Sequence record: OR352954
Reading direction: 5' to 3' (one strand)
DNA from: Escherichia phage AV124
Length of the DNA stretch: 64,000 bases
The translations under genes and the position numbers were made by a program. The notes beneath the pieces are model-generated. The model searched no databases, had not been told where the DNA came from, and saw only the letters and a list, made by a program, of their open reading frames with translations. This document shows positions 33,895 to 55,056 of this stretch, piece after piece (position 1 is the first letter of the stretch; the number at the start of each line of letters is the position of its first letter).

Positions 33895-34930
33895 ACCAAT
33901 TAAATACCCAAGCACCGCACAGTTCCGTCAGGTTATCCGCACCATGCATGATAAACTGACGTTCGACGGTCTTGATGAAGAAGGCAATATCAAGCGTAAG
34001 GTTTTGCCACCGGACGCATACTTGATCCCGTACATTGGTACGGTTAAGCTCCACGGCACAAATGGTAGCGTGGTATTCCACTCTGAGGATGAAGTTGTCT
34101 TCCAGTCCAAAGAGCGTGTCGTTACTGTAGGTGACGATAACAATGGCTTCGCGGCTTTCATGTCTCGAAAAGACACCTCAGAGCTGCTTTCCCAGGTTAA
34201 ATACCTGTGTGAAGTCAATGAAGTTGAGTTCCAGTTCCCGGTTGAAATTGCTGGTGAATGGGCTGGTCGCGGCATTCAGAAAGGTGTTGCCATCACTGAA
34301 GTAGAGCCATTCTTTGCTATCTTCCGTGTGGCTGTAGGCCGGGATGAGGCGACGGATACCCTCAACTGGCTACCACCAACGTTCCAGTTTGGAATGGGAT
34401 TGCCGGATGCTCGTATCTACAGTATCCTTGACTTCGGTTACTGGATGGCTAATATCCCATTCAATGAGCCAGAACTTGTCCAGAATGACTTGGCAGAACT
34501 GACTCGTGAAGTGGAAAACAAATGCCCGGCAGGTAAGTTCTTTGGCGTAGAAGGTATCGGTGAAGGCATTGTCTGGTCTCCAAAAGATCCTGAGCTTTCT
34601 AAAATCTCTGGTCTGTGGTTTAAAGTCAAGGGTGATAAACATTCTGTATCCAAAGTTAAGACCCTGGCAGCGATCGACCCAGAACGCCTCGCAAGTATGC
34701 GTGAGTTCGTTGAGTACGCTGTGACGGAAGCACGTCTTGAGCAGGGTGTTAGCGAAGTCGGTCTTGACCAGACTAAGATTGGTGAATTCATTGGATGGAT
34801 TAACCGAGACATCAACAAGGAAGAGGGTGATGTTCTGGAAGCCAGCTCCATGACCATGAAAGATGTTGGTAAGTTTATCAGCAACAAAGCTCGTGCATGG
34901 TACATGACTCGTCTGAGTGAGGAGGGCTAA
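33887..34930 (+). CDS. RNA ligase, Rnl2-like
   Basis: Nucleotidyltransferase motif I KLHGTN, EIAGEWAGRGIQKGV (cf. T4 Rnl2 FGEFAGPGIQKNV), motif IV EGIVW, motif V WFKVKGDK. Confidence 0.75.
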   Translation: MTKPIKYPSTAQFRQVIRTMHDKLTFDGLDEEGNIKRKVLPPDAYLIPYIGTVKLHGTNGSVVFHSEDEVVFQSKERVVTVGDDNNGFAAFMSRKDTSELLSQVKYLCEVNEVEFQFPVEIAGEWAGRGIQKGVAITEVEPFFAIFRVAVGRDEATDTLNWLPPTFQFGMGLPDARIYSILDFGYWMANIPFNEPELVQNDLAELTREVENKCPAGKFFGVEGIGEGIVWSPKDPELSKISGLWFKVKGDKHSVSKVKTLAAIDPERLASMREFVEYAVTEARLEQGVSEVGLDQTKIGEFIGWINRDINKEEGDVLEASSMTMKDVGKFISNKARAWYMTRLSEEG

Positions 34931-45933: not shown

Positions 45934-48300
45934 ATTAAAGGTCTGTTTATACTGGATAACGAGGCCGATGGCCTGTTAGACGAAGTAACTAAGTACCATT
46001 GTACTTTGCTGAAAGAATTCGGAGTCAACAACTGGAACCTGTTTTTAGACCCCGCACACCCTGAATATGAAAGCGCTGTAGCCTTTGCCAGGAGCAAGAA
46101 GGATGCTAATCTTACAATTCGTTCATACGACGAGCTGGAAAGCTTCCTGAAGACTTGTAGAGCCATTGCGTGTCACAACCTGTTTGGTTATGACCTGCGC
46201 CTGTGGAAGAAGTTATCGGGCATTGAATATGATATGTTCAAAGACCCGAAGTGCATGGGGACGATTGGGGATACACAGGTAAATCTCTACGACACCCTCT
46301 CTATGAGCCGTGTGCTTTATCCTGACCGTCCATTACCTAACGGTTGCCCTGACTCTGTTCTTAACCCGGTAACCGGGAAGCGAGACCGTGTAGGTCCTCA
46401 TGGCCTGTTGGCCTGGGGCTACCGCGTAGCAAACAAGAAAGTTCAGATCGATGACTGGCGTAACCAACCCTTGTGGGAATACGTTAATCGTGTCTGGGAA
46501 GACGTTTTAATCAACGAGTTAGTATGGCAATCCCTGATCGATGAATCTACAGGTGCTCGCTGGCCTGATGACAAGCAGTTCATGTACAAAGATAAACCGG
46601 AAGGGATGCGGCAGATCAACTGGAAGAACGCGCTACGCCGCCGTATGTTGACTGATTACCTGATGATTGAGCAAGAAATTCAGGGTGTTCCATTCAATAA
46701 GCATGAAGCTGAAAAGCTGAGAGACCGTATTGATGTAATGATGAAAGAGATTGAGGAAGAAGTAGAACCTCAACTCCCGCTCAAAGAGATGACGAAGTCT
46801 CAACAGCCAAAATTCCCTGCTAATCCTTTTGATGGTGCAGGAAGAATTTCCCATCACGGGTGGAATTGGTTAGAATACAAGCTGGGATATCCAGTTAATC
46901 GTGAAGCGCTGGAATTCAAAGGTCCACCGAAGACGGCGTTTAAAGGTAACGGTGATGTAAGTGCAGCAGGGGAAAGATACTGTATCCAGAATGGTGTTGA
47001 AGACCCGGCAGCGATGCCAGACTTCATTAGAAGCCAGATAAAGAAAGAGAATACCCTTGTCCCATTGCCACCAGACCTAATGGAAAAGGCAATTGCCGAT
47101 CTTCGTGCTGGAAAGATGCCAGACCTGATGGTTCCGATGAAGATCTCGAACCAGGACGACATCAAGAAGTACCTGATCCGCGATGCGGGATGGAAACCAA
47201 CGCTCTGGCGTGTTAAAGATGTGACGAAAGACCAGTTCAAAAAGACCCGCGATGATGCGGAGGTTGATGGTCTGGTGCGTAAGTACATCGAAGAACTTGG
47301 AGAGTCCGAGTATAAATCTCTGATTCTTGAGCACTTAAATAATAGTGACGCAAAGTTCAATATCTCGGAAAACAAGTTCGACCATCGTCATGGTTCTGAT
47401 CGTGTTTACGAGGAGGTCTTCAAGAAGTTCCGACGCAAAGCTCGTCAACTGCCGACTTCACCACAGTTGAAGGATAACTTTGGCAAGCTGTGTCCTAACC
47501 TTGAAGTTATCGATGTTCACTTGGCTAAACAGATTGTTAAGTGGCTGTCATTACGTAACCGTCGTTCTGTTCTCGACCCTATTGACGAGGATAAAAACGA
47601 TACAGGGCTGTTGAATCATCCTCGCCTGGCGATTGATGGAAAACTTCCAGCTCGTTTCTCTGGTATCACTAACACCGGGCGTTGTAAGCACACCATTTGT
47701 GCAAACATGCCTAAGCCAGATCCTAAGGTGTTGTTGGGTAAAGAGATGCGTGGTCTCTGGGGTGTGACCGATGAATATTACCAGGTCGGTATCGATGGTT
47801 CTAACCTCGAAGGTATGATCGCGGCATGGGGTGCATATCAGTTCGATGGTGGTGAATACCTCCGTATCATGGAAAGTGGAGATGCCCACGCACGAAACGC
47901 CGAGGCATACACCAAAGCTTCTGGTACTCTGGTAACGCGTAACGGTGGTAAAGGGGTAACCTACGGCATCATGTATGGTGCTCAGGCAGCTAAGATTGCA
48001 GCAATGCTTCACATTTCCCTTGACAAGGCACAGGCGGTAATCGATGCTTTCTGGGATAGTAACTTTGGTTTGAAAGGTCGTAAGGAATGGCTTGAAAACT
48101 TCTGGGAAGCAACGGGTAAACGTTATATCCCTGGTCTCGATGGTCGTAAGATTTGGACCCGTTCTAAGCACTCTCTTCTGAATGCTTTCCAGCAAAACGG
48201 TGGTGCATCTCTATTCGATCTGGTTGGTATCCTGCTTCACTGGGAACTGATCAAACGTGGCTGGTATGATGATGACGTTCGTCGCCTGATTTACTACCAT
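45934..48300 (+). CDS. DNA polymerase, family A (T7 gp5-like), 5' exon; apparent non-canonical start
   Basis: Alignable to T7 gp5 (LDNEADGLLDEVTKYHC exo I region, GPHGLLAWGYRV, motif B KGVTYGIMYG); frame open from 45922 with no ATG/GTG/TTG before conserved exo I motif; exon ends at YYH just before motif C. Confidence 0.75.
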
Positions 48301-49071
48301 AAATAACATTGTGGCTTTGTGAGGTAACTCACATCGAATAACTCCTTTAATTGCTGGGAGGCTAAGGTTGATATTCACTCGATAATAGAGTAAAATACAA
48401 CTATGTTAATCAGCAGCGAAGAGGATCAATGAAAAGTGTAAACTACCACGGATATGTGGTTTACGAAGACGGAACCATTATCGGAAGGCGCGGGAAACCG
48501 ATGCAAAAGGTAGATAATGGGAGGGGCTACCTAATTGTAAGTCTCTACCTTAATAAAAGAACAACGACAAAAGCTGTGCATGTTTTAGTGGCTGAGTGTT
48601 TCGTTCCCAACCCGGATAACCTCCCAGAGGTTGACCACAAGGATGGTGATAAGACCAACAACCACTACACCAACCTCCGCTGGGTAACAAGAGGTAAGAA
48701 CATAGAACATTGCTACACGTTGGAAGGTAGAAGTGCAACAGGTATTGCCAATGCAAACAGTAAGTTGTCAGAGGGAGAAGTGGAGAAAATCTGCTACCTC
48801 TTGCAGGAAGGCTTTAGTCAAGCTGCCATCCGAGACATGGGCTACCCATACGGAACAGTTAGGGCCATCAAGCAGAGACGACAATGGCTGCATATATCAT
48901 CTTCGTATCATTGGTCTTAACGTTCAGAGGCCAGCCGAAAGGCGTAGACGAGCGAGTGCCGTCGAAATGGGGAGCATCCTGAAAAGGATGGTGATATGGT
49001 CCGATCCTACGTGAAAACGTATGGCAACACGTAATGGTGTGGGCGAGATTAACGACCTCGCTAAACTTTTG
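48301..49071 (+). mobile_element. putative group I intron in DNA polymerase gene, carrying HNH homing endonuclease
   Basis: Polymerase frame stops at YYH-K-stop; in-frame C-terminal continuation DEYQ resumes at 49072 and restores motif C HDE; upstream exon ends in T, intron ends in G; internal ORF has own SD. Confidence 0.6.
48429..48920 (+). CDS. HNH homing endonuclease (intron-encoded)
   Basis: EVDHKDGDKTNNHYTNLRWVTRGKN HNH core; SD GAGGA before ATG. Confidence 0.7.
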   Translation: MKSVNYHGYVVYEDGTIIGRRGKPMQKVDNGRGYLIVSLYLNKRTTTKAVHVLVAECFVPNPDNLPEVDHKDGDKTNNHYTNLRWVTRGKNIEHCYTLEGRSATGIANANSKLSEGEVEKICYLLQEGFSQAAIRDMGYPYGTVRAIKQRRQWLHISSSYHWS

Positions 49072-49419
49072 GATGAATACCAGCTCCAGGTTCCTAAGAA
49101 ATACCTGAAGAAGTGGGAGTTCGACACCCTGGAAGAGGCAACAGCTTTCGTCAAAGAATGGGAAGCAAAAGGCCGGGTATTTGACGGACATGAATGGAGA
49201 AAGGCCGTCAAAGATGACAACGGTGATAAAGTCAAGGATGCGGAAGGCAATACAGTCTACGAAGGTATTTTCGGGGACGATGGTAAAATCCACATCCAGT
49301 ATTGCCCTGTTGGTGAAATGGTCGTAAGATGTGTAGAGAAGGCCGCTCGTATCATGGGCAGTCCTGTACATATCACAGGGGCATATCTTACGGGCGCCAA
49401 TTGGGCGCAATGTCATTGA
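49072..49419 (+). CDS. DNA polymerase, family A, 3' exon (motif C to C-terminus)
   Basis: DEYQ...TLEEATAFVKEWEAKGRVFDGHEW...ANWAQCH aligns with T7 gp5 C-terminus (HDEIQ...RTEEIAQVV...WVGDHW...PNWAICH). Confidence 0.65.
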   Translation, partial: DEYQLQVPKKYLKKWEFDTLEEATAFVKEWEAKGRVFDGHEWRKAVKDDNGDKVKDAEGNTVYEGIFGDDGKIHIQYCPVGEMVVRCVEKAARIMGSPVHITGAYLTGANWAQCH

Positions 49420-49437
49420 TATATAAGGATATTTTAT

Positions 49438-50073
49438 ATGGAATTATGGAAAGACATCCCCTCTACGGAGGGGAGATACCAAGTAAGTAATTATGGAAGA
49501 ATAAAAAGGCAACGGTATTCTCGCATAAACAGCAATCAAGCAGCAAGTTGGGAGCAAGTATATGAAACAAAGATATTAAAGCCTTCAAAGGACACACACG
49601 GTTACCTACAAGCTTGTTACCTTGTGGAAGGAGAGAGGACTATAGCCCTGGTCCATAGGCTTGTTGCAGAAGCCTTCCTTGCACCGCCAAGTCAAGAGTT
49701 GATAGATGAATGTATGAAGGCTGGTCACAAAGTGGTTCTTGTCAACCACAAGGATGGAAACCCACTTAACAACCATGTTGACAACCTTGAGTGGTGTACT
49801 CCTTCTTACAACAATGAGTATAGTCCCCAAGATTATTCAAATAGGTCTGGGGATAACTGTAAACATGCGGTTCTTAAAGAATCTGATGTTGACAAAATAC
49901 TGGAACTACGTGGTAAAATGAGTCAGCAGGCCATCGCGGATATGTTCGATGTGAAACAGATCACTATCAGCAACATTTTCACCGGAAGGTCTTGGTCTTC
50001 TTATACCGGAATACCTCGCAAAGAGCGTAACAAAGGAAAACGTGCAGCTAAGACCAAACTGTTATCACAATAG
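49438..50073 (+). CDS. HNH homing endonuclease (free-standing, NUMOD-like N-terminus)
   Basis: IPSTEGRYQVSNYGRIKR N-terminal module; HNH core VNHKDGNPLNNHVDNLEW. Confidence 0.7.
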   Translation: MELWKDIPSTEGRYQVSNYGRIKRQRYSRINSNQAASWEQVYETKILKPSKDTHGYLQACYLVEGERTIALVHRLVAEAFLAPPSQELIDECMKAGHKVVLVNHKDGNPLNNHVDNLEWCTPSYNNEYSPQDYSNRSGDNCKHAVLKESDVDKILELRGKMSQQAIADMFDVKQITISNIFTGRSWSSYTGIPRKERNKGKRAAKTKLLSQ

Positions 50074-50309: not shown

Positions 50310-50405
50310 AAAATAGTGTTGACACCCGTTTCGAATAGCATTAAAGTGTATCACATGAAGACGAGAGATCTCGCTTCAAAACAACCTCACAAACAGGAGA
50401 ACGAA

Positions 50406-52436
50406 ATGACCGCAAAATATGAAACCGTACCTTATGCTGACTTCGTAAAAGCTCTGAAAGCTCAGTTCGCTGTCATGCAAGCGCTGGGTGCGCTTTACAC
50501 GGTCGATGTACCGAAAGATGAACTGTACGACCTGTACCTTGATTCTTTCCCGGAAGGCACCAACCTGATGTATAAAGAGCGCCGTGAATACGACTGCAAC
50601 TGCTGCAAGAGCTACATCCGTACTCTGGGCCGCGTAGTTGCTATTCACAACGGCAAGCTGGTATCTATTTGGGACGTTAAAGTTGGTGGTTATTACCAAG
50701 TAGTTGCCGATGCGATGAAAGCGCGTGTTGAAAGCTCCGAGATCCGCGATCGCTTCTTCCACTTCGAAGGCCGCGTTGGTACTGAGAGCAACGTAGTTCT
50801 CCTGGAAAATGGGAAAACCAAAACCTGGACCCACTTCCATCAGGCCCTGCCTCGCGAACTGGTTAAACGTGGTGAAGATATCCCTTCTGCCCTGGGTGAG
50901 TACCGTGACAACGCAACTGTGCTGGCACGTTCTCTGAAAGATATCGATATGGACTCTGCCGAAACGGTAATGGACCTGATCAACCAAGGCTCTCTGTACC
51001 GTGGTGATGAGAAAAAGCACATTGTTGCTGCCTTTATTAAGGCGAAACGTGCATACGACAAAACGCCGGAAGACCAGCGAATGAACTTCTGCTGGAAACA
51101 AAGTGAAACGCTGGGTAGACTGGGTCGCTTCCGTAATGATGTCATCGGAACACTGATGAGCGATCTGGCAGAAGGTGTTGATCTTGAAGCCGCAGTGAAG
51201 TCCTTTGAAGACAAAGTCTCAGGGACCAACTACAAACGTACTACTGCTCTGGTAACTCCGGGCATGATCAAGGCAGCACAAGAGAAAGTTGAAGCCCTCG
51301 GCTTGACTGAATCTCTGGCACGTCGCTTTGCGGTGACCTCTGACCTGACGATCAACAACGTGTTGTTTGCTGACCGTTCTGCAAAGGCCCAAATGAACGT
51401 ATTCGAGCAACTGGCAGCGTCAACCAAAAACGCGCCTAAGTCACTGTCGAAAGTGGAAGAGATCAGCATTGAGGATTTCATCAACAACGTTCTACCGAAA
51501 GCGGACACTATCGAAGCGCTGGTTGAAGGTCGTCTGACACCGAACCTGATGAGCTTGGTTGCCCCGGCAAACGCAGGTGCTCCTAACCTGTTCAAATGGG
51601 ATAACGGCTTCTCCTGGTCGTATAATGGCGAAGTAACTGACTCCATCAAGGAGCGTGTGAAAGCCGCTGGCGGCAGCGTGACTGGTGACCTGCGTGTTTC
51701 GTTGTCTTGGTACAACAGTGATGACCTCGACCTGCACGTATTCGAGCCTGGTGGCGGTCAAATTTACTTCGGTAACAAACGTGGTCGCTCAACGGGTACG
51801 CTGGATGTGGATATGAATGCCTATGGCAAGTCAGACGCACACCATCCGGTTGAGAACGTTACGTGGGAAAATGAGCGTAATATCACGGAAGGTGTTTACA
51901 AGGTTGTTGTTAACAACTATAATAAGCGCATGACTGATCGCGTTGGCTTCGAAGTCCAGATGGAATACAAAGGCCAAGTGTTCAACTTCGCATACCCGCA
52001 AGCTTTGGGTAATAGCAAGAGCCAGACCGTTGTAACATTTAAGTATTCTCGTGCGAAAGGTGTTGAAATTGTAGACAGCATCGGGCATACTAAGCAATCT
52101 AAAGAAGTGTGGGGCGTCTCTACCGAGACCTTCCAGAAAGTTTCTCTGGTGCTAAATTCTCCTAACTTCTGGGATGGTCAGACCAAAGGTAACAAACACT
52201 ACTTCTTTATGCTGGAAGGTTGCATTAACCCTGACGATACTCGTGGCTTCTACAATGAGTATCTGCGTGACGAGCTGCATGAGCATCGTAAAGTGTTCGA
52301 AGTGTTGGGTTCCAAGCTCAAAGCTGAACACTCCGCTGATCAACTGAGCGGCCTGGGCTTCTCGTCTACCCAGCGTAATGAGTTGGTTGTGAAGGTGACT
52401 GGTTCTTTCAACCGCACCCTGAAGATTAAGTTCTAA
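50406..52436 (+). CDS. hypothetical protein (676 aa), strongly codon-optimised
   Basis: ATG after AGGAGAACGAA; CTG/CGT/GGT/GAA/AAA-dominated codon usage and higher GC than flanks; hairpin after stop; track start 50316 likely upstream extension. Confidence 0.6.
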   Translation: MTAKYETVPYADFVKALKAQFAVMQALGALYTVDVPKDELYDLYLDSFPEGTNLMYKERREYDCNCCKSYIRTLGRVVAIHNGKLVSIWDVKVGGYYQVVADAMKARVESSEIRDRFFHFEGRVGTESNVVLLENGKTKTWTHFHQALPRELVKRGEDIPSALGEYRDNATVLARSLKDIDMDSAETVMDLINQGSLYRGDEKKHIVAAFIKAKRAYDKTPEDQRMNFCWKQSETLGRLGRFRNDVIGTLMSDLAEGVDLEAAVKSFEDKVSGTNYKRTTALVTPGMIKAAQEKVEALGLTESLARRFAVTSDLTINNVLFADRSAKAQMNVFEQLAASTKNAPKSLSKVEEISIEDFINNVLPKADTIEALVEGRLTPNLMSLVAPANAGAPNLFKWDNGFSWSYNGEVTDSIKERVKAAGGSVTGDLRVSLSWYNSDDLDLHVFEPGGGQIYFGNKRGRSTGTLDVDMNAYGKSDAHHPVENVTWENERNITEGVYKVVVNNYNKRMTDRVGFEVQMEYKGQVFNFAYPQALGNSKSQTVVTFKYSRAKGVEIVDSIGHTKQSKEVWGVSTETFQKVSLVLNSPNFWDGQTKGNKHYFFMLEGCINPDDTRGFYNEYLRDELHEHRKVFEVLGSKLKAEHSADQLSGLGFSSTQRNELVVKVTGSFNRTLKIKF

Positions 52437-52486
52437 TTAAACAGCCCCTTCGGGGGCTAATATTGAAATCATAGAGGAGATAAAAG

Positions 52487-52882
52487 ATGACCACTACTAA
52501 CCTGTTCGAAGTTGCCACCCGTAAAAAACTGCGTTTTGCAAGTCCGAAAGGTCTACTGACCACAGAAGATCTGTGGGATCTGCCGATGACTGGTAATACC
52601 AGCCTAGATACGGTTTCCAAACTGGCTAACCGTGATGTGAAAGCATCTGCTGAAGAAAGTTTCGTTGTCGAGGCCAGTGCTGTAAATGGCGAAGCAAACC
52701 TGAAGCTGGATATCCTGAAGTACATCATCTCGGTGCGTAAAGCGGAGATCGCGGATCGCCAGGCAGCGAAAGAGAAGGTTGAGCGTAAGCGTAAACTTCT
52801 GGACCTGCTGGCAGAGAAGGATAACGAGAAAGATGCAGCGATGACTCGTGAAGAAATCCTGAAAGAGCTGGAATCTCTGTAA
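52487..52882 (+). CDS. hypothetical protein (131 aa), strongly codon-optimised
   Basis: ATG after AGGAGATAAAAG; same codon bias as upstream gene; followed by terminator. Confidence 0.55.
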   Translation: MTTTNLFEVATRKKLRFASPKGLLTTEDLWDLPMTGNTSLDTVSKLANRDVKASAEESFVVEASAVNGEANLKLDILKYIISVRKAEIADRQAAKEKVERKRKLLDLLAEKDNEKDAAMTREEILKELESL

Positions 52883-52889
52883 TCTGCCC

Positions 52890-52914
52890 GCCAAGGCCCT
52901 TCGGGGCCTTTTTG
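52890..52914 (+). terminator. rho-independent terminator
   Basis: AAGGCCC-TTCG-GGGCCTT followed by TTTTT. Confidence 0.6.
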
Positions 52915-53967: not shown

Positions 53968-55056
53968 ATGACGATTACTCGCGGCCTTATCTTCGGGAAG
54001 TTTGCACCCCTGACCAACGGGCATATTGAATTCATTCGCCAGGCGGCTTCGCAGGTTAGTGCTCTGTACCTGTTCCTGTCATATGATCAGAAATTCGTTG
54101 ATGCACAACCAGAATGGATTCGTCCAAAGCTGGGGCTTGCTGATCGTTATCGTGACCTGCTGGATGTTATTGCCGATGAGGGACTTGACAACGTGAAGGT
54201 AGACTACGTTGATGAGTCGAATATCCCAGGATACCCTGAAGGCAGTGCTGCCTATGCAAAACTGATCCGTGAAAAGCAACCGTTCGTTAAGTACGATTTT
54301 GCTTTCTCTTCTGAGCCGGAGTATGAGTCTTACTTCAGTGAGTTCTTCCCTGAAGCGAAGCATGTAGTTATCGACGCAGAACGTAAAGCTGTTCCTATCT
54401 CAGCCACGATGATCCGTAATGATCCGTACAACAACTTCTACAACCTAGCGTGGCCTGCACGTAAGCGCTTCATGAAGAAGGTTGCCATCATTGGTGTTGA
54501 GAGTACGGGCAAGACAACCCTGACAAAACATCTGGCGCATACCTTCGGTGCTGGTTGGATTCCTGAGATCGGACGGCTTATCTGTGAGCGTGAATATCAC
54601 TCCAGTGAGTTCGCAATGTCTCGTGAAGACTACCTGCGTATCGCTATGGAGCACCGCCTGAAGGAGATGGAGTTGGCTGGTTGGGGTGATCGTGGGGTTA
54701 TGTTCTCTGACACCACAAACCTGATCACACACTTCTCTGGTGTTTGTGCTGATAAGATCGACTACGCAGACCTGTTGTTCCGGACACTAAGCCGTGAAGA
54801 GAGCTACAACTTCTATGACCTGTTCCTGCTCCTCACACCAGAGGTTCCGTGGGTTGCTGATCCTCTTCGCTTGCAGGATACACCAGAGAAACGTAAAGAA
54901 ACCCATTCTTTGCTTGACACAATGATCAGAGCATCTTACGATACAAGCAAGGTGGTGGTTATCTCCGGCAGTGATTACGAAGAGCGTACTCAGAGAGCTG
55001 AAGAAGCTGTCCGTAAATTGCTGAATATCAAAGGAGAACAAGATGGATCAAACTAA
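53968..55056 (+). CDS. nadR: bifunctional NMN adenylyltransferase / ribosylnicotinamide kinase (NadR-like, no HTH domain)
   Basis: N-terminal nucleotidyltransferase signature GKFAPLTNGHIEFI (GxFxPxHxGH); C-terminal P-loop GVESTGKTT; layout as NadR catalytic domains. Confidence 0.75.
   Translation: MTITRGLIFGKFAPLTNGHIEFIRQAASQVSALYLFLSYDQKFVDAQPEWIRPKLGLADRYRDLLDVIADEGLDNVKVDYVDESNIPGYPEGSAAYAKLIREKQPFVKYDFAFSSEPEYESYFSEFFPEAKHVVIDAERKAVPISATMIRNDPYNNFYNLAWPARKRFMKKVAIIGVESTGKTTLTKHLAHTFGAGWIPEIGRLICEREYHSSEFAMSREDYLRIAMEHRLKEMELAGWGDRGVMFSDTTNLITHFSGVCADKIDYADLLFRTLSREESYNFYDLFLLLTPEVPWVADPLRLQDTPEKRKETHSLLDTMIRASYDTSKVVVISGSDYEERTQRAEEAVRKLLNIKGEQDGSN

Follow-up and report, generated by a model that had tools for sequence, protein, structure and literature searches.

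Genes A and B are neighbours on one strand of the replication module of Escherichia phage AV124 (sequence record OR352954), in a stretch of 64,000 nucleotides that was analysed at its full length and is hereafter called the window. They code for proteins of 676 and 131 amino acids (aa) and make up a bicistronic unit, equipped with a sigma70-like promoter, strong ribosome-binding sites and a terminator. Codon adaptation in both comes close to that of capsid genes, and A is followed by B without exception across six or more phage lineages, the pair moving as a unit. As a tentative reading, we privilege the hypothesis that the two proteins build an accessory, self-contained and abundant complex that would act during the replication phase on a universally conserved ligand. 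The placement in the replication module, proposed in a preliminary description of this DNA, agrees with the genes found around the pair: an ATPase, rIIA, rIIB, a Dda-like helicase, a primase/helicase and DNA polymerase upstream, and a NadR-like nicotinamide mononucleotide (NMN) adenylyltransferase downstream. The window is 97-98% identical at the nucleotide level to Klebsiella myophages of the KpS8/KB57/Seu621 group (Vequintavirinae, Mydovirus, ~143 kb), and the product of gene A corresponds exactly to WPK37715.1 of AV124.

The codon usage of highly expressed genes, attributed to both open reading frames (ORFs) in the preliminary description, was borne out by the codon adaptation index (CAI), computed with the Sharp and Li weights for E. 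coli. A scores 0.495 and B 0.534 against a mean of 0.269 (standard deviation 0.069) across 119 window ORFs; A ranks first among the called ORFs and B, scored separately, stands above it. None of 5000 resamplings of synonymous codons from the window usage reached the observed values (z of 14.2 for A and 8.3 for B), and the two genes were again the top two of the window with weights taken from the capsid genes of the phage itself. Enriched codons are CTG, CGT, GGT/GGC, CCG and ATC; ATA and TTA do not occur, and of AGA/AGG there is a single AGA. The GC content is higher than in the flanks, as had also been stated (0.493 for A and 0.485 for B against 0.41-0.46 in the immediate neighbours; at third codon positions 0.544 and 0.504, where the window averages 0.453 with a standard deviation of 0.057), but the difference is modest, DNA polymerase and NadR being comparably GC-rich.

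The same calculation on 71 kb of Seu621 that include the structural module (27 annotated genes measured) gave values of 0.692 for the major capsid protein, 0.605 for the decoration protein, 0.548 for B, 0.507 for A and 0.465 for NAMPT, followed at lower ranks by the tail tube (0.409), the sheath (0.383) and DNA polymerase (0.352). Only the capsid and decoration proteins thus exceed A and B. In CBA120, a phage of the Ackermannviridae with an E. coli host, A and B reach 0.511 and 0.548 against 0.21-0.41 for their neighbours, clamp loader included; high expression would therefore be a conserved property of the pair. The abundance of the two proteins suggested at the outset gains indirect support from these near-capsid values in Seu621 and the independent excess in CBA120. 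It was also proposed that the two genes could be a recently acquired host-derived cassette, since they use codons much as strongly expressed enterobacterial genes do. This origin is barely credible and already contradicted: blastn at 65-70% sensitivity found no match in 5,426 complete E. coli genomes, homologues are found phage-wide with conserved gene order in what is an old family, and the bias has the same direction as that of the phage's own capsid genes, which points to selection for expression within the phage and not to foreign origin.

A codon adaptation surpassed, among the genes measured, only by capsid and decoration genes could also be expected of a structural protein, scaffold or assembly chaperone encoded outside the structural module. 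We consider this very improbable, because the pair sits on the strand of the replication genes while the structural cluster is distant and on the opposite strand, because distant homologues are middle-class genes, and because bacterial chromosomes carry copies without phage genes. Neither A nor B has a structural PHROG or Pfam match, and the pair is conserved between myoviruses and siphoviruses whose virions are unrelated.

Protein A aligns to PHROG 1735 over residues 9-676 (E 6.8e-298) and protein B to PHROG 2018 over residues 3-131 (E 4.9e-44), while Pfam family DUF8224 (PF26675) is precomputed on all 120 A homologues listed, including one that is 99% identical. All three families are annotated as of unknown function, so that the initial statement that neither protein matches a recognisable family was essentially right; A and B are full members of them and nothing sets them apart. 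An exhaustive HMMER search for the A family retrieved 6,921 representatives of 50%-identity clusters, 1,241 of them below 1e-30, most being full-length with 40-58% identity. With tblastn, A turned up in 552 phage records, whose hosts belong to more than 40 genera. They include Ackermannviridae (CBA120 orf153), several genera of Vequintavirinae, Caulobacter phiCbK-like siphophages, Ralstonia phiRSL1, Herelleviridae of Bacillus cereus, Vibrio phages, Microcystis phage Ma-LMM01 and Cellulophaga phi4:1. The identity of full-length A is 40-58% between phages of Proteobacteria, Firmicutes and Cyanobacteria. In three Dickeya phages, RC-2014, Ds23CZ and Kamild (H72, H79, H80), tblastn covers 12-39% of A across several small annotated ORFs, where the gene may be fragmented or interrupted. 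Full-length A homologues were also observed on eight records of 117-360 kb (NZ_CP037807, NZ_CP132310, NZ_CP081467 and others) of Clostridioides, Shinella, Vagococcus, Bacillus and Paenibacillus, which are possibly phages kept outside the chromosome or phage-plasmids; 20 of the 22 matching plasmid records are typed as non-mobilizable.

At six of six distant phage loci, and at all 80 loci from bacterial and archaeal genome assemblies, the gene immediately 3' of A is B. Two of the six are on metagenomic contigs, L003 and L004. At the other four, profile comparison with hhalign identified as A/B pairs gp014/gp013 of Ma-LMM01 (probability 99.4%) as well as orf153/orf151 of CBA120, BCP78_0085/0084 and gp279/gp280 of CcrSwift (99.7-99.8%). 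The 3' end of the unit recurs in most of the phage loci inspected, with hairpins behind B in CBA120, BCP78, L003, L004 and L008 and an annotated terminator in CcrSwift. Short forms of A (538-552 aa) are encoded by Xanthomonas, Pseudomonas and Serratia phages next to genes for ribonucleotide reductase (RNR), ligase, polynucleotide kinase (PNK) and RusA. These forms are devoid of residues ~436-597, and no B homologue was found within 4 kb of them at the three loci inspected. Since the three short forms without this segment are also those without B, we infer that B works with it.

The AlphaFold2 model of A (mean local confidence, pLDDT, of 85.9; predicted template modelling score, pTM, of 0.54) shows five regions: alpha/beta (residues 1-152), helical (153-300), alpha/beta (301-435), a beta-sandwich (~426-565) and a carboxyl-terminal alpha/beta region (~566-676). 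The beta-sandwich has a TerD-like fold in the predicted structure and is the only recognisable part of the protein. As short members do without residues ~436-597, the TerD-like domain sits as an insert within a conserved core. The insert carries the invariant and acidic motifs DDLDLH, LDVDMN and VEN, in which D440, D442, D467, D469, E483 and N484 are invariant, and is probably Ca2+-binding. Throughout the superfamily, the invariant residues include Y44, R59, C64, C67, Y276, R278, R306, W398, N400, W435, E618 and E632, with many Arg, Lys, Tyr, Trp and Asn among the invariant positions of A; neither a P-loop nor an NTPase or other known catalytic signature was detected in it. The model of B (pLDDT 87.2) consists of a small amino-terminal beta-hairpin domain, marked by the motif F-E-x-A-T-R-x-K-L-R-F...G-x-L-T-x-E-D-L-W-D-L, and of a long helical hairpin behind it; the fold of B matches only generic helical hairpins such as that of uL29.

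The resemblance to TerD is confined to the fold. The insert of A shares 12-15% identity with Klebsiella TerD (2KXT) and with SCO6318 (2QZ7) of Streptomyces and SAV2460 (2QNG), and the sequence profile of TerD was not hit by A at E <= 1 and does not rank among the 25 best Pfam families of the 56 members scanned. TerD proteins are stand-alone polypeptides of ~190 aa encoded in Ter operons, whereas in A the domain is inserted within 676 aa and other Ter genes are not nearby. The core domain of pneumovirus M2-1 (5NKX, 4CS7) is listed with them among the closest known systems. A weak match to DUF2135, a YfaP-like beta-sandwich (PF09906), appeared in two of the 56 members (best E 0.021) and not in the window protein. 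Searches of PDB sequences with single sequences and with the family profile returned nothing below E 0.1, hence no relative with a solved structure, and no additional Pfam domain turned up in ten family members of greater length. It is possible, if doubtful, that DUF8224 and its helical partner constitute a self-sufficient two-protein machine, so far unrecognised and common to virulent phages from many families and to some bacteria, with near-capsid abundance during replication, a Ca2+-binding TerD-like module and an activity new to phages, for example metal-controlled handling or sequestering of nucleic acids; it would then not be a variant of any known enzyme, sponge or scaffold.

The names given to A in databases, 'DNA-directed RNA polymerase', 'serine protease', 'SAP domain protein' and 'coil containing protein', are mutually contradictory and none is supported. 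The first of them, used for Seu621, BIS47, Gloob and Iguana, has in its favour only product names in some GenBank and UniRef records and is contradicted by the lack of profile or fold support for an RNA polymerase catalytic domain, be it the double-psi beta-barrel with DxDGD or a T7-like palm; we give it practically no credit. Other assignments were tried and rejected. A poly(ADP-ribose) polymerase (PARP)-like enzyme was considered on account of PARP_reg hits in two of 56 members (best E 5.9e-5) and of a 'YNE' motif, but the fold matches do not include PARP, and hhalign of the family alignment against residues 662-1014 of human PARP1 gave a probability of 0.3%. The SAP/HeH DNA-binding domain annotated in phage KP12 is neither among the Pfam hits of the window protein nor in the 25 best families of the 56 members. 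Residues 285-310 of A resemble a helix-loop-helix, by visual inspection only. A thioredoxin-like CxxC domain finds no counterpart among the fold matches, which lack that fold, and a single-stranded DNA-binding protein (SSB) is suggested neither by the fold matches of A nor by the secondary structure of B, none of which points to an oligonucleotide-binding (OB) fold. Ackermannviridae encode an SSB of the gp32 type; they are said to be T4-related in the title of the LIMEstone paper.

Chromosomal copies of the pair bear directly on its autonomy. Complete chromosomes of Micromonosporaceae (Micromonospora, Actinoplanes, Dactylosporangium, Plantactinospora, Catellatospora and Phytohabitans) carry A and B, with A 83-92% identical across genera. 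The conserved block extends from ~150-250 nt upstream of A to ~10-25 nt beyond B, and 35 of the 37 loci have no flanking DNA in common. The flanks code for NACHT and NB-ARC-TPR NTPases, an IS481 transposase, GH35, a phosphodiesterase, MacB/FtsX and a BTAD regulator, all ordinary or island-type cellular proteins, and no phage gene was found in them. The upstream block (loci L040-L091; for example L071 5920-5990, ~30-80 nt before A) contains the palindrome GGAAAYGCGTTTC overlapping the -35 box, then a TAGGAT -10 box and the strong Shine-Dalgarno sequence AAGGAGG. Such a conserved palindrome at -35 suggests repressor control, GGAAAYGCGTTTC being probably the operator; to our knowledge it is unlike the LexA, Rex, Zur and RecA-NDp consensus sequences. 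Other cellular contexts are a 3.5-Mb Sericytochromatia contig and Bradyrhizobium.

The pair can also be missing. The rV5-like phage Bas54 has a syntenic replication module in which only ORFs of 285-372 nt directly follow DNA polymerase, and the annotation table of its genes 0065-0223 has no hypothetical gene of ~2 kb (10.1101/2025.11.20.689424, supplement 3); by this table Bas54 appears to be devoid of A and B. Lone chromosomal cassettes together with this absence describe a self-sufficient module that is gained and lost, and not a part of the core replisome or of the virion. They weigh also against an architectural role, in which A and B would be an intracellular scaffold, coat or compartment organising replicating DNA or assembly, with B as its coiled-coil element. 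That role would be in keeping with the near-capsid codon adaptation, the single long helical hairpin that makes up most of B, the co-expression with replication genes and the absence of a recognised catalytic signature; yet A and B have no low-complexity or repeat features, nothing points to self-assembly, and we regard this role as improbable.

The timing of expression was deduced from Ma-LMM01, whose gp013 and gp014 are class B5 'middle' genes with those of replication, recombination and nucleotide metabolism (PMC5780444, supplementary file 4). Neighbours of the pair are DNA polymerase in AV124, clamp loader genes in CBA120, and recA and thyX, between which it lies, in Ma-LMM01. RtcB is encoded within 2.5 kb of the pair at three unrelated loci, in Bradyrhizobium (L023 4601-5941, with RtcB directly upstream), a Lachnospiraceae metagenome-assembled genome (L033 4365-5444) and a 132-kb 'plasmid' of Clostridioides difficile (L035 10481-11755). 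Thg1-like, PNK and ligase genes adjoin the pair or the short forms in some loci, and a Gad2-family gene is found near the pair of L003.

Such a neighbourhood, always of nucleotide-metabolism and replication genes, would suit an enzyme of nucleotide, nicotinamide adenine dinucleotide (NAD) or DNA-modification metabolism made at high level like RNR or NAMPT, with B as a regulatory or oligomerising subunit. The metabolic enzymes of the same phage have high CAI too, A has clusters of invariant polar residues (Y44, R59, C64-x-x-C67, Y276, R278, R306, E618 and E632), and strong conservation across hosts is typical of enzymes. However, no catalytic family was recovered by Pfam, NCBIfam, PDB sequence or fold searches, no nucleotide-binding motif is present, and the CAI of A and B exceeds that of every recognised enzyme of the phage, so that we consider this assignment unlikely.

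The preliminary description also noted that abundant non-structural early proteins of phages are often host-takeover or anti-defence factors. Counter-defence, a role that we hold to be unlikely as well, would be of this kind: the complex would sequester or destroy a signalling nucleotide, or repair or shield a universal target of immunity such as tRNA. High abundance fits a decoy or sponge, the pair is distributed patchily as a mobile accessory element, the phage also has NAD+ salvage genes and an RNA ligase, and the RtcB, Thg1-like and PNK neighbours of some loci and the Gad2-family gene near the L003 pair accord with it. On the other hand, known sponges are small and fast-evolving while A, at 676 aa, keeps 40-58% identity between phyla, no functional match came from PADLOC or PHROGs (in PADLOC-DB 2.0 no defence protein was hit by A, and B had a single hit at E 0.33), and a stand-alone cellular copy under its own operator, as in Micromonosporaceae, is unexpected for an anti-defence gene.

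In the hypothesis that we privilege, A and B would be partners, probably in a stoichiometric complex, with the helical B docked at or close to the TerD-like insert, itself probably Ca2+-binding. The complex would be produced in large amounts in the replication (middle) phase, as an accessory self-sufficient module that is neither a virion component nor a part of the core replisome. It would bind or process a universal target, which might be nucleic acid (RNA or DNA ends, damaged RNA) or a small molecule derived from nucleotides. The ligand should be universal because A keeps 40-58% identity in phages of Klebsiella, Bacillus, Caulobacter and Microcystis hosts, and because the pair is conserved across host phyla and works in bacteria without phage genes; this full-length identity across phyla argues against a host-specific protein, which is the less favoured target. 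The choice of nucleic acid or nucleotide comes from the gene neighbourhoods (replication, RNR, ligase, PNK, RtcB, Thg1-like) and from the type of invariant residues, and is a weak step.

Several points weigh against this hypothesis. Codon adaptation is a proxy, and fairly high values are also those of metabolic enzymes of the same phage (NAMPT 0.465, RNA ligase 0.439). The gp013 and gp014 genes of Ma-LMM01 are transcribed at about the level of the genes next to them (supplementary file 4 of PMC5780444). Pfam scans detected no nucleic-acid-binding domain, and the isoelectric points of A (6.5) and B (5.7) are near-neutral, unlike those of many basic nucleic-acid binders. The RtcB association is a raw count of three among ~43 loci outside Micromonosporaceae. 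The link between insert and B stands on three short-form loci with 4-kb flanks, and the absence from Bas54 was read from an annotation table, the Bas54 sequence itself not being searched.

The systems Pnk+Rnl, RtcB RNA repair and NAMPT+NMNAT are likewise self-contained, patchy across phage families, well conserved, present also in bacteria and placed among early or middle genes. They have no sequence or fold relation to A and B, and the likeness, drawn from general knowledge, is one of distribution only. By the tests applied, the A-B module is, with moderate confidence, far from every known system, although biochemical data may yet show it to be an uncommon form of a known kind. The sequences themselves are already catalogued in DUF8224, PHROG 1735 and PHROG 2018, for which neither a function nor a characterised relative was found; our literature search retrieved no paper on PF26675/DUF8224 and no description of the family in transcriptome, virion-proteome or essentiality studies. 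It appears to be undescribed that A and B are obligatorily paired, that their codon adaptation is capsid-like in two phage families, that A has an insertion architecture, and that bacteria carry the cassette on its own.

The pair is carried by more than 550 sequenced phages, including the therapy and biocontrol genera Mydovirus, Kuttervirus, Certrevirus and Tsarbombavirus, and by thousands of metagenomic protein clusters. Among the most codon-adapted genes of its phages and conserved across bacterial phyla, it is likely to represent a general feature of the way large lytic phages exploit the cell. It offers a well-defined entry to phage 'dark matter': probably abundant, conserved, portable, made of two genes that are clear deletion targets, and available as stand-alone actinobacterial copies. 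Genetic tools for E. coli phages exist (CRISPR-Cas13a selection, the HIDEN-SEQ study of Bas54) and could be applied to CBA120. Tuned for high expression and without a match of known function, the pair is a strong candidate for experimental study. The present assignments also correct the misleading names 'DNA-directed RNA polymerase', 'serine protease' and 'SAP domain protein'.

The features of the AV124 unit are given in Table 1. The strong Shine-Dalgarno sequence of each gene and the hairpin behind each, with a T-run after the second only, are as first described; the promoter was absent from that description. The hairpin of the A-B spacer could be a partial terminator or an RNA stabiliser.

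Table 1. Coordinates of the A-B unit and its expression signals in the AV124 window.
Feature	Position	Strand	Description
Sigma70-like promoter TTGACA-17-TAAAGT, upstream of gene A	50319-50347	+	Consensus scan 10/12, consensus match only
Shine-Dalgarno AGGAG, gene A	50395-50399	+	Read off the sequence; 6 nt to ATG
Gene A	50406-52436	+	ORF, 676 aa; DUF8224 (PF26675) / PHROG 1735; five predicted domains
Gene A segment, aa 436-597	51711-52196	+	Missing from short family members; contains most of the TerD-like beta-sandwich
GC hairpin with UUCG loop, between A and B	52443-52458	+	-12 kcal/mol, z -2.7; + strand without T-run
Shine-Dalgarno GAGGAG, gene B	52474-52479	+	Read off the sequence; 7 nt to ATG
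Gene B	52487-52882	+	ORF, 131 aa; PHROG 2018; N-terminal beta-hairpin domain, then long helical hairpin
Intrinsic terminator AAGGCCC-UUCG-GGGCCUU + UUUU, after gene B	52893-52914	+	Hairpin 52893-52910, -14.5 kcal/mol

The A-B spacer varies among close relatives. In the AV124 window, P8734 and VLCpiM5b it measures only 50 nt (window 52437-52486) and contains the UUCG hairpin, while relatives of the Seu621, KpS8 and KB57 type have in this place an extra ORF of 70 aa (CAI 0.203; L001 11434-11646).

Other genes of the window and of its relatives code for RNA and NAD+ metabolism. An RNA ligase (PHROG 548; 33944-34930, + strand) has a CAI of 0.439, second among the 119 called ORFs (B, scored separately, is higher), a value suggesting that this phage also expresses RNA repair or ligation at a high level. 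The NadR-like NMN adenylyltransferase (53968-55056, + strand) has a CAI of 0.377, and in relatives (L002 43895-46436) NAD+ salvage is represented by NAMPT (CAI 0.465), phosphoribosyl pyrophosphate (PRPP) synthetase and a nicotinamide riboside transporter. The NAMPT+NMNAT pathway, which these phage genes resemble, reportedly counters NAD+-depleting immunity.

Upstream of the pair, a group I intron (48291-49023, + strand) interrupts the DNA polymerase gene between ORFs 46006-48306 and 49021-49419. The intron matches Rfam RF00028 over the whole model length with 39.3 bits (E 2e-7), under the gathering score of 50, and harbours an HNH homing-endonuclease ORF (48429-48920); the polymerase of Seu621 is a single unbroken ORF of 880 aa. 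Between the end of the polymerase and a 75-aa ORF that precedes A lies a free-standing endonuclease-like ORF of 211 aa (49438-50073, + strand; CAI 0.212). It is HNH-like by eye only, and its Seu621 counterpart is a hypothetical gene of 208 aa in the same place.

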